A program made the position numbers and the translations under genes. The notes below the pieces were generated by a model. The model was not told where the DNA came from, made no database searches, and saw only the letters and a list, made by a program, of their open reading frames with translations. From Octopus vulgaris (lineage: Eukaryota), in contig OX597833.1 in the NCBI GenBank assembly GCA_951406725.2, positions 27,714,001-27,778,000 of the forward strand: 64,000 bases of DNA, written 5' to 3'. This document shows, piece by piece, positions 12,902 through 59,346 of this stretch (position 1 is its first letter; every line of letters starts with the position of its first letter).

Positions 12902-13738
12902 ATCATATAATTAAGGGCTAAAGAGGGTTATTCTAAAGCCAATACACTGATTTATCCACTTATAATCTGTTTGCTACAGGAGAATTGAAACTGAAAACGG
13001 GCAACTAACCTTTAGAAAATTTAAATTTCGTTATCTCTATATTGAATCAATTTCGGAATTAATCTTATAAAAAAGATATATTCTTTCTTCAGTAGATCTT
13101 TCGATGGGATATAAATAAAATACTCACGTATGACCATGGAAAAAGCACAAGCTAAAAACATAACTACACTTGAGTACATCATTTATATCTAAAAATAAAA
13201 ATTCTTTGGTCAGCTTCAGAAACAACGTCTTGACCTTTCGCCGCTACAAATTGTAATGGTTACCGGTCCTCCCGTAGCAAGCAGCGAGTTTACTACTAGC
13301 AATATAGGATGAAGTCCCTTTCTCTATAGAAAAGGAATCCATCAGGAAGCGTGGGCAGTATATTTTTAAAAAACCGTTACGGTTGAAGTATAAACATCAT
13401 ATAATTAAGGGCTAAAGAGGGTTATTCTAAAGCCAATACACTGATTTATCCACTAATAATCTTTTTTATAAGATTAATTCCGAAATTGATTCAATATAGA
13501 GATAACGAAATTTAAATTTTCTAAAGGTTAGTTGCCCGTTTTCAGTTTCAATTCTCCTGTAGCAAACAGATTATAAGTGGATAAATCAGTGTATTGGCTT
13601 TAGAATAACCCTCTTTAGCCCTTAATTATATGATGTTTATACTTCAACCGTAACGGTTTTTTTAAATATACTGCCCACGCTTCCTGATGGATTCCTATTC
13701 TGTAGAGAAAGGAACTTCATCCTATATTGCTAGTAGTA
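12902..13738. mobile_element. Non-coding PLE/retrozyme-like element: 494-bp unit in partial tandem plus inverted copy, flanked by (TA)n
   Basis: 12902-12967 recurs directly at 13396-13461. 13460-13635 is the reverse complement of 12902-13077, and 13635-13738 is the reverse complement of 13291-13395. Confidence 0.8.
13036..13096 (-). ncRNA. Type I hammerhead ribozyme motif
   Basis: Minus strand: TCTA-CTGAAGA-aaGAATatATCTTttttatAAGATtaATTCc-GAAA-TTGAtTCAA-TA^-TAGA. Stem I 4 bp, near-palindromic stem III, imperfect base of stem II. Confidence 0.7.
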
Positions 13739-13791
13739 TATATATATATATATATATATATATATATATATTAAATTAGATATTTCAATTA

Positions 13792-13858
13792 ACCTGAAGA
13801 TTGACTGTAACCATAACTCGAATTATTACGAATTGTACAGCTATGAAACGATCGTAGT
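13792..13858 (+). ncRNA. Hammerhead ribozyme motif with weak stem I
   Basis: AC-CTGAAGA-..CTGTA..TACAG..-GAAA-CGATCG-TA^-GT. Palindromic stem III, stem I only 2 bp. Lies in an AT-rich element at 13771-14090 between (TA)n tracts. Confidence 0.55.
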
Positions 13859-14299
13859 GTTTTACTCTTTATCTTTTATTAAACTTTTAATACTTTTGAT
13901 ATATATTTAAAATAATATAAATTAATTAATTTTATGTATTGGCTTATGTTTTTCATTGTTTGATTTGCCTAATAGTGGTTTTATCTCTAATTTAATATAA
14001 TATAATATAATATATTTTACTATAAAATTGGATTTAATCCTAAATCTGATTTTTCCCTGTAAGTTTGGATTTATTCCCTAATATTTTATTATATATATAT
14101 ATATATATATATATATATATATATATATATATATATATATATATATATATATATATATATATATATATATATATATATACATACATACATACATACATAC
14201 ATACATACATACATACATACATGCATGCATACATACATACATATGCATGTGTGTGTTCATATGCATACATACATACATACATTTATAGGCCTATATAAA

Positions 14300-15250
14300 C
14301 AACATCCCCAACGTCATCAAACACAGCAAACTAAGAATATTCGCAGATGACTACTAGCTCCAAAAAGTTGGAGAAGATCGAACTAAAACTCCCCTCAGTA
14401 AACCAATGGACGGACATAAACCATATGCACTTTGGGAGTTGGGGGGGGAGACTGCTCTCCATCAATGATATTCTCCTCCTTCAGGGAAAATACTCACGAC
14501 ATCCAATGATATCAGAAAGGTAGGAGTGACTATTGACAACAGTCTCAGGTGGAGTGCCCACATCAACAATAAAGTCGATATGGCTCACTGAATAAGCTCC
14601 TAAATCATCAGAACTTTCCTGTTCCATGTCATCATTCTCCTTTTCACATCTTTTGTACGACCACACCAAGAATACTGCTGCCCTTATGGTCTCCCTACAC
14701 CAAAGAAAACTTTCTGGGGATTGTGTCACCCCAGAGAGCTTTCACTAAAAGAATAAAAGTTAAGACCGATCTTCATTATTGGTCCCGCCTTAAAACATTG
14801 AATGTTTATTCTCTCCACCACTGCGTGAGTGCTACATCATTTGCACAACGTAGTGATATATCACCAGCATCGCCCAAATGACCTTAACATCAGATTCAGA
14901 ATTCATTCAAGACTGGCGCCGCGTGCCATACGTTCCCCATACAATTCAGGATCACAATACATACATTCACTGCAACACAATTTATCTTACTCAACAAACC
15001 CTGCTGTATTTAACATTGTCCCAAAACAAATCAAAGAAAAAAAATATCCCATTACTTTCAAGCGAAACCGGAACAAGTTTCTTTTAGGGATACCAGAGAA
15101 GCCACATATACTTGGATACATCTCAGTCCACAGCAATTCCCTTGACTTAAAAACGACTAAAAAGATCCTATCAAGTGGTGCTATTAAGTTAGACATGGTC
15201 TGCGCCAACCTTTGGGCAAAACATGCCTAAGTGATCGAAGTTATCTAAGA
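14300..15250 (+). mobile_element. CR1/L2-group LINE 3' fragment, decayed
   Basis: KLRIFADD at ~14330, VGVTIDNSLRWSAHINNKV, SFVRPHQEYCCPLWSP. 3' end tagacatgg..(taagttatc)-like tail also seen at 59900-59970 (-). Confidence 0.8.
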
Positions 15251-15454
15251 TACATATATAGATACATCTAAATGCATACATATATACATATATTCATGCA
15301 TATATATATATATATATATATATATATATATATATATATATATATATATATATATATATATAAGGAGAATTAACAAAAAAAAACAAAAGACAAAGACAGG
15401 TGATGTAGACAACAAACAGATATATTAGTATAACGCTCGGGAAGTGAAAAAGTG

Positions 15455-15488
15455 TTTAACGTTTCGAGCCTACGCTCTTCCACAGAAA
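15455..15488 (-). ncRNA. Degenerate minimal hammerhead motif
   Basis: TTT-CTGTGGA-a-GAGCgtagGCTC-GAAA-CG-TT-AAA. One substitution in the core, essentially no stem III. Confidence 0.4.
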
Positions 15489-15809
15489 GGAACACAGAAA
15501 GAAACAAAGAGAGAAAATAAAGAAAATAGCGATCTATCATATATATATGAATATATAAATGTATATATGTGTGTGCGTATGAGTGTGTGTGTATAAATGA
15601 ATACATACATATATGCATGTGTAAATGGACCTCTCAGGCTCTCTCTCTCTCTCTCTCTCTCTCTCTCTCTCTCTCTATATATATATATATATATATATAT
15701 ATATATATATATATATATATATATGTCGGTCCCGGGTTGATTCGGGGTTAACCACAGTAAATAAGGTACTCAATACATAGCAGAGTAAAATTAATTTATT
15801 ATATAGAAG

Positions 15810-56779: not shown

Positions 56780-57190
56780 ACTCTTTTACTCTTTTACTTG
56801 TTTCTGTCATTTGACTGTAGTCATGCTGGAGCCCCGCCTTTAGTCGAGCAAATAGAACCCAGGACTTATTCTTTGTACGCCTAGTACTTATTTTATCGGT
56901 CTCTTTTGCCGAATCGCTAAGTTACGGGACGTAAACACACCAGCATCGGTTGTCAGGCGATGTTGGGGGGACAAACACAGACACACAAACATATACACAC
57001 ACACATACATATATAAACACATATATACGACGGGTTTCTTTCAGTTTCCGTCTACCAAATCTACTCACAAGACTTTCGTCGGCCCGAGGTTATGGTATAA
57101 GACACTTGCCCAAGCTGTCACGCAGGGGGACTGAACCCGAAACCATGTGGTTTGTAAGCAAGCTACTTACCACACAGCCACTCCCACGCC
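56780..57190 (-). mobile_element. SINE family B, full length
   Basis: Reverse complement of 7033-7447. Confidence 0.88.
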
Positions 57191-57469
57191 TACGGAATGT
57201 ATATAATTTAAATCAAGTAAAAGGGGATTGGTGAAAGAATCTATTACATATTTAAACATGTCCACTACCATTACGTTTAGAAGCAGCGATACGATTTCTG
57301 CAGATCTAGAAATCGGTCTGGCAACTAATTTTCAGTTATATCCTGAACCACGTCAGTTATCCCTAATCAAACAGTCATCTATGTCAAATTAGTTTTATGT
57401 GTGTTCCTTATAAAATATAGCTAAAGTTACTATTTAATGATTTAAAATAATTAATATACAGTAATATAC

Positions 57470-58180
57470 AGGCGTTGCGGTGTGGTAAGAAAATGGCTTC
57501 CTAACAAAATGGCTCCGGGTTCAGTCTTACAGCGTAGCATCTTGAGCAAGTTTCTTCTACAATAGCCACGGGCCGACTAAAGCCTTGTGAGTGGATTTGG
57601 TAGACGAAAACAGAAAGAAGCCCGTCGAATATATATATATATATATGTGTGTGTGTGCGTGTGTGTGTGTGTGTGTGTGTGTGTGTGTGTGTTTGTGTGT
57701 GTGTGTGTGTGTATTATCTATCTATCTATCTATCTATATATATATATATGTGTGTGTGTGTGTATCTATTATCTTTAACTGTTTCAGTCGTTTGACTGTG
57801 TCAATGCTGGGGCAGCGTCTTGAATTTTTAGTTGAATGAATCGACTCCAGTACTTCTTTTTAAGCCCGATATTTATTCGATTGTTTTTTGTTTGTTTTTC
57901 TTTGTTTTTGTTTTCTTTGCTGAACCACTACGTATATATTTATGCAAATTTTTGTGTCTGTGTTTGTACCCCTTCCCCGCATACATGCACACACCACGAC
58001 TTGACAACCGGAATTGGTGTGTTTACGTCTCTGTAACTTAGCGATTCAGCCAAAGACCGATAGAATAAATACCAGGCTTAGAAAAATAACTAAGTACTAT
58101 TGTCGATTCATTCAGCTAAAAAAATTTCAAGGTGGGGCCCCAGTATGACTGAAGCAAGTAAAAGAAAAGTAAAAGAAAAA
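57470..58180 (+). mobile_element. SINE family B, interrupted by an inverted tail fragment and microsatellites
   Basis: Head 57470-57630, inverted tail ~57770-57930, tail ~57955-58180. Confidence 0.75.
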
Positions 58181-58766
58181 ACTATGATAACTTCATTATT
58201 GAGAGAAATAGATTTGTTGCGTCTCGCTTCTAAATGTTACTTTTTTCCCTTATTTTTTAACAGATTATTTTCCAGAAAAAAATTTTTTTCATCTGAGACC
58301 GTGTTTTGAAACTGAAACATTTACAGTATGGAAGACACAGATTAATGATTCAAAAACACACAAGACTGTTAACTTATTTAAACGTTTATGTGTGCGTGCG
58401 CGTGTGTGTATGTGTGTGTGTAAGCACAAAGTCAGGTGGCAGGAAAGGTGAGTACATATTTTACTAAAAATTATATAATACACACACATATATATATATA
58501 TATATATATATATTTAAACATAATAAATAACATTAAGGTAATAAGAATTATATAAATTATTATTACCAGTGGCCTAGCACAAAAAAAGAATTATTCAATA
58601 GACTATATATTATTCACATAGAAATATCGTGTACATTAAAACACATCAAGAGGATTCCAAGTAGGAAAGCCTTGTGCTAGAAAGAGCAGTAGAAAACTTA
58701 AACCACTAATTAGGAGATAAATTCTCGAAATGAATGAAAATTAAAAACGTTTACCATCTTATTTAG

Positions 58767-58836
58767 TTCCTAGACCATGGTTTCTAACTAATTCCAGTAA
58801 AAAATATTTACTGAGGCTAGTTTTCATCAGTAGGAA
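58767..58836 (-). ncRNA. Type I hammerhead ribozyme motif (left arm)
   Basis: TTCCTA-CTGATGA-aAACTAGcctCAGTAAAtatttTTTACTGgaaTTAGTTa-GAAA-CCATGG-TC^-TAGGAA. Confidence 0.9.
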
Positions 58837-58959
58837 GCCTTTAGAATTTTACCGGCATTCCCTCTGTCGCCGGATATAATTTGCATCTGCGTAGTTAGGA
58901 TATACATACAGCTAGTTTACATGTGGATCTAGTCGTGTGTATATTTGAATTCTAAAGGC

Positions 58960-59025
58960 TTCCTACTGATGAAAACTAGCCTCAGTAAATATTTTTTACT
59001 AGAATTAGAAACCATGGTCTAGGAA
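58960..59025 (+). ncRNA. Type I hammerhead ribozyme motif (right arm; 4-nt deletion in stem II)
   Basis: TTCCTA-CTGATGA-..-GAAA-CCATGG-TC^-TAGGAA. Confidence 0.85.
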
Positions 59026-59346
59026 CTAAATAAGATTGTAAACGTTTTTAATTTTCATTCCTTTCGAGAATTTATCTCCTAATTAGTGGTTTGAGTTTTC
59101 TACTGCTCTTTCTAGCACAAGATTTCCTACTTGGAAACCTCTTGATGTGTTTTAATGTACATGATATTTATATATATATATAGATAGATGGATAGATAGA
59201 TAGATAGATAGATAGATAGATAGATAGATAGATAGATACATACATACATACATACATACATACATACATACATACATACATACATACATATGTATAAATG
59301 TGTGTATGTATATATATCATGTTAAGTGCGTTGTACAGATATTGAA

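Follow-up and report, generated by a model that had tools for sequence, protein, structure and literature searches.

Hammerhead motifs at an octopus locus

The DNA analysed here (the window) is a 64-kb stretch of contig OX597833.1 (positions 27,714,001 to 27,778,000) of the Octopus vulgaris genome (GCA_951406725.2; 2.8 Gb in 227 contigs, the genome searched throughout). It is AT-rich, dense in microsatellites, and carries a dispersed set of type I hammerhead ribozyme motifs in repeat families that appear to belong to, or derive from, the Hydra clade of Penelope-like elements (PLEs). An original prediction, made from the letters of this stretch alone, had proposed seven well-formed and five degenerate hammerheads in microsatellite-embedded PLE or retrozyme families. 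All seven well-formed motifs lie where they had been placed (Table 1), with the core CUGANGA...GAAA...UH in type I order, three helices in which pairing is kept and sequence varies, and internal loops in both stem I and stem II. A working descriptor in type I order, allowing up to 80 nt between CTGANGA and GAAA, recovers seven hammerheads from the window, whereas 200 dinucleotide shuffles in 1-kb blocks yield a mean of 0.13 and a maximum of 2, in agreement with the predicted excess over shuffled sequence. The window motifs are thereby confirmed as real type I hammerhead sequences, with predicted cleavage after NUH.

The core halves are separated by 31–58 nt in six of the seven motifs, and only the motif at 15810 on the reverse strand has a short stem II; this length had not been singled out before. 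A strict descriptor (stem II of up to 40 nt, 10.1–11.1 paired) recovered none of the seven, the suggested search with the Rfam hammerhead models returned nothing at gathering score in the window and nine further loci (97 kb), and no hammerhead was found among the 150 of 289 matches listed in an E-value scan, which microsatellite matches dominated. The stem III inserts named in the original prediction are correct, and to them can be added a near-palindromic 14-nt insert at 15810. The five degenerate motifs are likewise all real, but most are not products of simple decay, as they include core and stem variants found throughout their families. In what follows, numbers prefixed with L denote fetched loci outside the window, and ORF denotes an open reading frame.

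Table 1. Hammerhead motifs and the elements that carry them in the window
Feature	Position	Strand	Remarks
Family E non-coding element, 1.13 copies of a 494-nt circularly permuted unit	12910-13466	-	3' end abuts (TA)n
E hammerhead	13035-13098	-	31-nt stem II region; 9-nt palindromic stem III insert; predicted cut after 13040
Inverted arm of E	13455-13736	+	Ribozyme 3' half only
Family F 3' fragment	13776-14089	+	Flanked by (TA)n tracts; relatives (L327, L363) adjoin Hydra ORF pieces
F hammerhead	13788-13861	+	44-nt stem II region; weak stem I throughout family
Family H minimal hammerhead	15454-15490	-	A6U core variant; 2-nt stem III insert
Family G 3' fragment, ~140 nt	15725-15866	-	Very young
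G hammerhead	15810-15862	-	Short stem II; predicted cut after 15817
Family C 5'-truncated Hydra-clade PLE	37587-38734	-	Thumb/GIY-YIG remnant 38157-38734, 3' untranslated region, end at (GATA)n tract
C hammerhead	37783-37871	-	58-nt stem II region, covarying helices; predicted cut after 37789
Family D inverted arm	39294-39770	-	Decayed hammerhead 39541-39645, U3-A8 core, ~74-nt stem II region
Family D main arm	39801-40887	+	Degraded GIY-YIG remnant 39801-40079, then 3' untranslated region, end at (TA)n
Decayed ribozyme region in D main arm	near 40546-40620	+	
Family B head-to-head pair, 539-nt non-coding unit	43669-44388	both	
B hammerheads	43935-44013 and 44224-44302	- and +	46-nt stem II region
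Minimal hammerhead	47634-47667	+	7-bp stem I, U4C core, 5-nt spacer
Second family D insertion, inverted structure	56309-56769	both	Decayed ribozyme 56602-56715 (+)
Family A head-to-head pair, ~470-nt non-coding unit	58566-59161		Between (TA)n tracts
A hammerheads	58767-58836 and 58960-59025	- and +	A-A mismatch at 10.1-11.1

Genome-wide abundance and the palindromic stem III

The pattern CTGADGA-N28-58-GAAAC-NNNN-GTH, which demands no pairing, matches the genome 27,513 times against 1,163 matches for the reversed control, and a short-spacer form (3–27 nt) gives 12,859 matches against 914; both forms miss families E, G, H and D and the U4C copies. The genome would therefore hold about 26,000 long-stem motifs. 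False positives of the pattern at L360, L367 and L372 lie in long interspersed nuclear element (LINE) reverse transcriptase (RT) coding sequence reading YADDL. Pairing was assessed in the first 100 of the 27,513 long-spacer matches, some of which are inverted pairs at one locus and so not fully independent, and which form 30 clusters at 65% identity. The four free bases of stem III are palindromic in 92 of them, in many different sequences (strictly Watson–Crick in 71, where chance would give 7%), the opening three base pairs of stem I can form in 76, and positions 2–4 of stem II are paired in 53, against 5% and 4%, respectively, across families. The claim that the core is kept while the letters of stem I differ and still pair thus holds across 30 sequence clusters. 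Because the central bases of stem III cannot pair inside one hairpin, the retention of a palindrome there suggests that two RNAs pair with each other. In computed folds, six of the seven stem III sequences have 0 kcal/mol on their own, and self-duplexes range from −1.7 to −12.8 kcal/mol. A palindromic stem III, as had been anticipated, would suit dimers and is consistent with dimer cleavage.

Stem II as a maintained helix

Across families, 28–86 nt lie between the core halves, built as 12–15 bp followed by an internal loop and a distal hairpin. Covariation was analysed in 32 sequences of the C superfamily, namely 30 of 35 cluster members (three duplicates and two 5'-truncated copies being left out), the window copy and L142. 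Cells pair in 86.7% of cases, compared with 33–49% when partners are slid, and in seven of the 12 proximal stem II pairs both bases have changed, which bears out the covariation looked for in stem II. Compensatory changes can be followed as far as 12 bp from the core, two distal pairs likewise show changes in both bases, and RNAalifold recovers the stem II helix unaided. Family D, with a spacer of 72–86 nt, has a 15-bp stem II (16 copies anchored). Among 77 Hydra-type loci from marine metagenomes, 58 have a hammerhead, with spacers of 10–29 nt and a single one of 28 nt or more, and the Hydra ribozymes described in PMC8557442 have a short stem II; set against these, the long stem II looks lineage-specific. 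Two of the metagenomic Hydra elements (L443 and L471) share the U3-A8 core. The long stem II is a maintained helix, and is likely an extension for tertiary contact or protein binding.

Repeat families, ages and core variants

Searches of the octopus genome with the window elements gave first-look candidates numbering at least 504 for A, 1,151 for B, 2,617 for C, 1,004 for E, 1,343 for F, 529 for G and 429 for D; these counts are lower bounds, with 40 candidates scored per family. A 37-mer of family G has 2,242 exact matches in the genome. Best-match identities range from 98–100% (E, F, G) down to 76–83% (D), so the families differ in age. Three departures from the consensus core recur, namely U3-A8 in D, U4C in young C and in family I, and A6U in H. 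The core of family D reads TTGANAA in 17 of 25 copies and CTGANGA in none of the 25, and the motifs at 39541 (reverse strand) and ~56598 (forward strand) are members of this old family with its compensated U3-A8 core. The minimal motif at 47634 has no relatives among the fetched loci.

Link to Hydra-clade elements

Family C is linked to a coding element. A GIY-YIG remnant lies directly upstream of the ribozyme at 37783, and a search with it gave 12,288 candidates; it and the family D remnant at 39801-40079 (38% identical to the family C protein), which also adjoins a motif, were absent from the original prediction. Intact single ORFs of 778 aa encoding RT and GIY-YIG domains occur in L142 and L143, in elements of less than 3 kb. 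In L142 an inverted truncated copy, an upstream repeat, the ORF, a downstream repeat and (TA)n follow one another, with a long-stem ribozyme in both terminal repeats, so that the family C hammerhead sits in the 3' repeat of a full-length Hydra-clade element. A second full-length member, L492, encodes 906 aa and has a long-stem ribozyme directly ahead of its ORF. The protein of family C shows RWL (RWK or RWR in most relatives), SDKT, CLLC and CKH, a C-terminal endonuclease with CxxC and CxH around E and N, and no CCHH. The Hydra proteins went unrecognised in searches of Pfam and PDB; the protein matches of the family C element include a relative in Argonauta hians. Many Hydra-like proteins stand on contigs of 2.2–2.8 kb, about one element length, which may be circles or just collapsed repeats.

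The CxCX5C linker is absent from both C-superfamily ORFs (L142 3287-5623, forward; L492 3778-6498, reverse) and present in the ORF beside family G, with CxC or CxCx5C in the 23 aligned relatives that reach the region. From its motifs and a by-eye comparison with Hydra-1_Obim, family C appears to be a linker-less Hydra-like lineage. Since C nevertheless inserts in (TA)n, the zinc linker proposed for microsatellite targeting would not be required, or so these elements argue. On the whole the original interpretation is supported. The expected PLE or retrozyme origin is upheld by the intact ORFs and the ribozyme-bearing repeats, to which the likely clade, Hydra, can now be added. Microsatellite targeting also stands, with 49 of 50 C ends abutting microsatellites, but the equal weight given to (GATA)n does not, this being a minor target beside (TA)n. 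The description of the families as mostly non-coding has to be withdrawn: ORF pieces accompany 14 of 30 C and 4 of 25 D loci and also lie beside F-like ribozymes, and non-coding status is established for A, B and E alone.

Non-coding units and their insertion ends

Families A, B and E consist of units of ~470, 539 and 494 nt, respectively, with one type I hammerhead per unit, and are circularly permuted, the sequence 3' of the ribozyme running into that 5' of it. With Hydra proteins as the only queries, no match to the C protein was found in 80 A, B and E loci. These units resemble retrozymes and are likely derived from Hydra PLE repeats. Direct head-to-tail repeats occur in one of 20 A, one of 30 B and three of 30 E loci, and head-to-head arms are common. 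A Hydra ORF beside an E copy at L175 was considered as the partner of E and rejected, as it belongs to a different family into whose flank E had inserted.

The ends of E were mapped on 59 distinct segments from 60 loci, after segments below 40 nt, duplicates and those at locus edges had been dropped. Fifty-four finish in (TA)n, nearly always at one of two internal sites separated by ~97 nt. Fourteen exceed unit length, the longest measuring 901 nt, 53 cross the predicted cut site, and a single one starts within 5 nt of it; with the query placed 3' of the cut, none of 37 segments starts there. Likewise, none of 30 G copies taken in genome order starts at the predicted cut. As starts almost never fall at the cut in E or G, the template is not the linear cleavage product. 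It would instead be a re-ligated circle or an uncleaved multimeric RNA, and the mapped ends are compatible with both.

Among the 30 G copies, 16 start 12–58 nt upstream of the cut, and 13 of these cluster at 31–43 nt, inside the 5' half of the ribozyme; an inverted arm is present in 14 (L252-L281). The RT may stop or fold back at the G ribozyme. The notion of G as a fixed 135-nt short interspersed nuclear element was dropped, given that 14 of 30 unbiased copies reach more than 60 nt upstream of the cut. In the flanks at L252-L281, the 3' region of the long form of G is largely TA/TG-rich, microsatellite-like sequence common to the copies. At L312 a G copy lies next to a Hydra ORF whose linker is intact. 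This ORF is a plausible parent of G, but it is inverted and adjacent, with no second G ribozyme.

The head-to-head insertions in the window (58603-59187, 43669-44388 and 13291-13738) are palindromes of 450–700 bp. If transcribed, they could form long double-stranded RNA, a possible substrate for editing or small RNAs. The other repeats of the window (329-3616, 19683-21002, 21800-22333, 61133-61540 and 10961-12024) are LINE fragments whose endonuclease and zf-RVT matches fall short of the Pfam cut-offs, a fragment resembling an endonuclease, and part of a mariner transposase, of which a second, diverged copy is present.

Proposed mechanism and alternatives

We consider it fairly probable that the long-stem-II type I motifs belong to the 3' repeats of Hydra PLEs and to derived units of 470–540 nt, that cleavage likely takes place in dimers only, and that unit-length circles are copied into (TA)n by the Hydra RT/GIY-YIG protein. 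Directly observed parts of this scheme are the motifs and their covariation, the Hydra ORF link in family C, the circularly permuted layout of A, B and E, the constant AU-rich 3' ends next to microsatellites, the inserts exceeding one unit and those running through an intact cut site. In the monomer, a 2-bp stem III would be unstable, and two RNAs would pair via an 8-nt palindrome to give active cores. A tandem transcript would be cleaved and then ligated into a circle, the endonuclease would nick (TA)n, and the RT would start at one of two internal AU-rich sites ~100–150 nt apart. It would then pass through the re-ligated site, sometimes more than once round, and a fold-back or a second priming event would produce the head-to-head arm.

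A number of observations weigh against this scheme. Ribozyme mutants of the Anolis element are reported still to insert in vitro (PMC11167929). None of the 80 loci offers an autonomous element whose ribozyme is of the A, B or E type, and tandem copies in the 20 A, 30 B and 30 E loci go no further than dimers, with no long arrays. No element in the window has two complete ribozymes in one direction, and as one ribozyme of each head-to-head pair is antisense, such pairs offer no dimer within one transcript. Monomers folded without constraint attain the active shape only partly. Two of five whole-structure measures are not above shuffles (74/500 and 481/500), and the covariation set covers only about five related subfamilies. 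Stem I is weak in 25 of 25 copies of family F, to which the motif at 13792 belongs; the family H core, as in the motif at 15455, carries A6U, reading CTGTNGA in 19 of 24 copies; and the B insert is mostly non-palindromic (CATTTG in 15 of 30 copies). In the young C subfamily with intact ORFs, U4C stands in 24 of 32 readable cores, a change reported to reduce activity in vitro (PMC3088659). Young, expanding families, such as this C subfamily, F and B, carry weakened ribozymes.

The same elements could alternatively be copied from uncleaved linear read-through RNA of tandem copies, the ribozyme being dispensable for insertion and either a regulator or vestigial, and tandem precursors accounting for permutation and over-length inserts. 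We regard this as unlikely, if a serious contender: intact cut sites within inserts fit it equally well, genomic E dimers exist, the youngest C subfamily has U4C and stems are weakened in F and B, and unprocessed RNA is described as the main in vitro substrate of the Anolis element PAc (PMC11167929). Yet core, stem I and palindrome are kept over 30 clusters despite changing letters, which needs selection for catalysis or dimer pairing, and linear templates should shorten by 5' truncation, in conflict with the 14 of 59 E segments that exceed a unit. A different doubt concerns stem II alone, which might be a neutral, tolerated insertion of an AT-rich hairpin in ribozymes that otherwise work as described. 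Length and sequence do vary widely among families (28–86 nt), short-stem forms coexist with the long ones (12,859 matches) and marine Hydra elements do without the extension, so this possibility deserves more credence than the uncleaved template; still, compensatory changes as far as 12 bp from the core with two distal pairs doubly changed, the 15-bp helix kept in family D and the roughly 2:1 excess of long over short forms make it the less convincing account of the helix.

It seems quite improbable that A, B and E owe their mobility to a different RT (Naiad, Neptune, Poseidon or a LINE) rather than to Hydra proteins. A Hydra ORF is attached to 0 of 80 of their loci, and octopus Naiads also target (TA)n, one being listed with a 35–50-nt 'half core' spacer (PMC8557442 supplement); against this, A, B and E resemble coding C in the style of the ribozyme, in their (TA)n ends, which fall at two internal sites, and in having inverted arms, their unit size is near that of the C 3' untranslated region plus leader, and their 10.1–11.1 mismatch is typical of published Hydra ribozymes. 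Coincidental matches in DNA so rich in AT and in repeats hardly need to be entertained: about 4% of long-spacer matches (1,163 of 27,513) are expected background and three of the first 100 fall inside LINE RT coding sequence, but the shuffles, and pairing that the pattern did not demand, refute chance as the general explanation.

Taken further, and offered as a speculation that we would not expect to hold in full, the octopus Hydra lineage may have evolved stem II into a folded domain of 30–85 nt that docks the RT/endonuclease or aids dimer assembly, letting non-coding circles hijack the protein; such a domain would be kept even where the core weakens and would have arisen alongside the loss of the zinc linker in the largest superfamily. 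If so, this genome, with more than 26,000 copies, would rank among the most ribozyme-rich of invertebrates, with abundant undescribed circular RNAs. The sole biochemical study of PLE hammerheads found cleavage to be protein-assisted and dispensable in vitro. The octopus genome has dozens of families, young elements whose ORFs are intact, naturally occurring variants of the core and passengers that encode no protein, so that ribozyme strength can be compared with amplification success.

Comparison with known systems

Hammerheads in PLE repeats, together with dimer and circle models, have been published (Cervera and de la Pena, 2014, PMC4209133), as have non-LTR retrozymes of coral, mussel and axolotl with circular RNAs from those of mussel and coral (Cervera and de la Pena, 2020, PMC7229834), an origin of retrozymes from PLE repeats (Li et al., 2026, bioRxiv 10.64898/2026.07.22.740005) and head-to-head arms in PLEs. 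A 2026 repeat annotation of O. vulgaris assigns 6.83% of the genome to PLEs in 190 families, and its text and one supplement do not mention ribozymes or hammerheads. In the open literature, a search domain outside which lie subscription papers, Repbase and Dfam, we found no prior report of the long-stem-II form, and the new families may stand in Repbase or Dfam as unclassified repeats; the 'long helix II' of PMC13725137 is 6–8 bp. The giant squid is reported to have 235 Rfam hammerhead matches (PMC6962438). Since neither Rfam nor short-spacer descriptors pick up the long-stem form, the numbers of hammerheads given for cephalopods are probably gross underestimates.

The comparisons below draw on parts of the cited reports. 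The nearest relative of the coding elements is Hydra-1_Obim (Craig et al., 2021, PMC8557442), a ribozyme-bearing Hydra family of octopus that targets (TA)n. Shared with it are a single ORF in less than 3 kb, RT with C-terminal GIY-YIG, DKT, CxxC/CxH and the lack of CCHH, insertion in (TA)n, a type I ribozyme in the 3' repeat with a 10.1–11.1 mismatch or extra base, and an upstream repeat with an inverted truncated copy. Its stem II, however, has 7 bp and an 8-nt loop, and the Hydra spacers listed there are all short, in contrast to the 53–58 nt of the C superfamily, which also has no CxCX5C linker; U3-A8, U4C and A6U cores are family-wide in the octopus elements described here. The supplement of the same paper (S1) lists Naiad_Ovul and seven other Naiads as 'HHR_half_core' with spacers of 35–50 nt, and these half-core motifs may be long-stem-II hammerheads. 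The converse, that the long-stem motifs described here are Naiad half cores, was rejected for C, D and F, which adjoin a C-terminal endonuclease or Hydra ORF pieces.

Like non-LTR retrozymes, A, B and E are non-coding and AT-rich, have one type I hammerhead per unit and coexist with autonomous PLEs, from whose terminal repeats they likely derive. Their units of 470–540 nt compare with 170–400 nt (PMC7229834) and 51–972 bp (10.64898/2026.07.22.740005) for retrozymes, and they differ in occurring as monomers, partial dimers and head-to-head pairs in (TA)n rather than in long arrays, in their very long stem II, and in being known from genomic sequence, circular RNA having been reported in the published systems only. 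With the minimal, short-stem-III hammerheads of PLEs (PMC4209133; Lunse et al., 2017, via PMC6765202) the octopus motifs have in common the palindromic stem III, the dimer model, an extra base before stem II, U3-A8 and high diversity within a genome, and families H and I fit this class directly; there, however, a 'large' helix II is 7–8 bp, as opposed to 12–15 bp with an internal loop and distal hairpin here. Poseidon PAc of Anolis (Frangieh et al., 2024, PMC11167929) primes internally at two sites at AT-rich nicks, and its cleavage is described as protein-dependent and dispensable for insertion in vitro. The octopus elements resemble it in the AT-rich target, the two internal priming sites and insertion from RNA with an intact ribozyme, but PAc is of another clade, its ribozyme overlaps the ORF start, and its priming sites are 30–40 nt apart, compared with ~97 nt in E and 148 nt in C. 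The association of hammerheads with PLEs and retrozymes is thus already known, and what is new is the long stem II and the genome-wide scale. The hammerheads with a long stem II form a large set, overlooked until now, that is housed in Hydra-like elements and in the retrozyme-like passengers of these elements.

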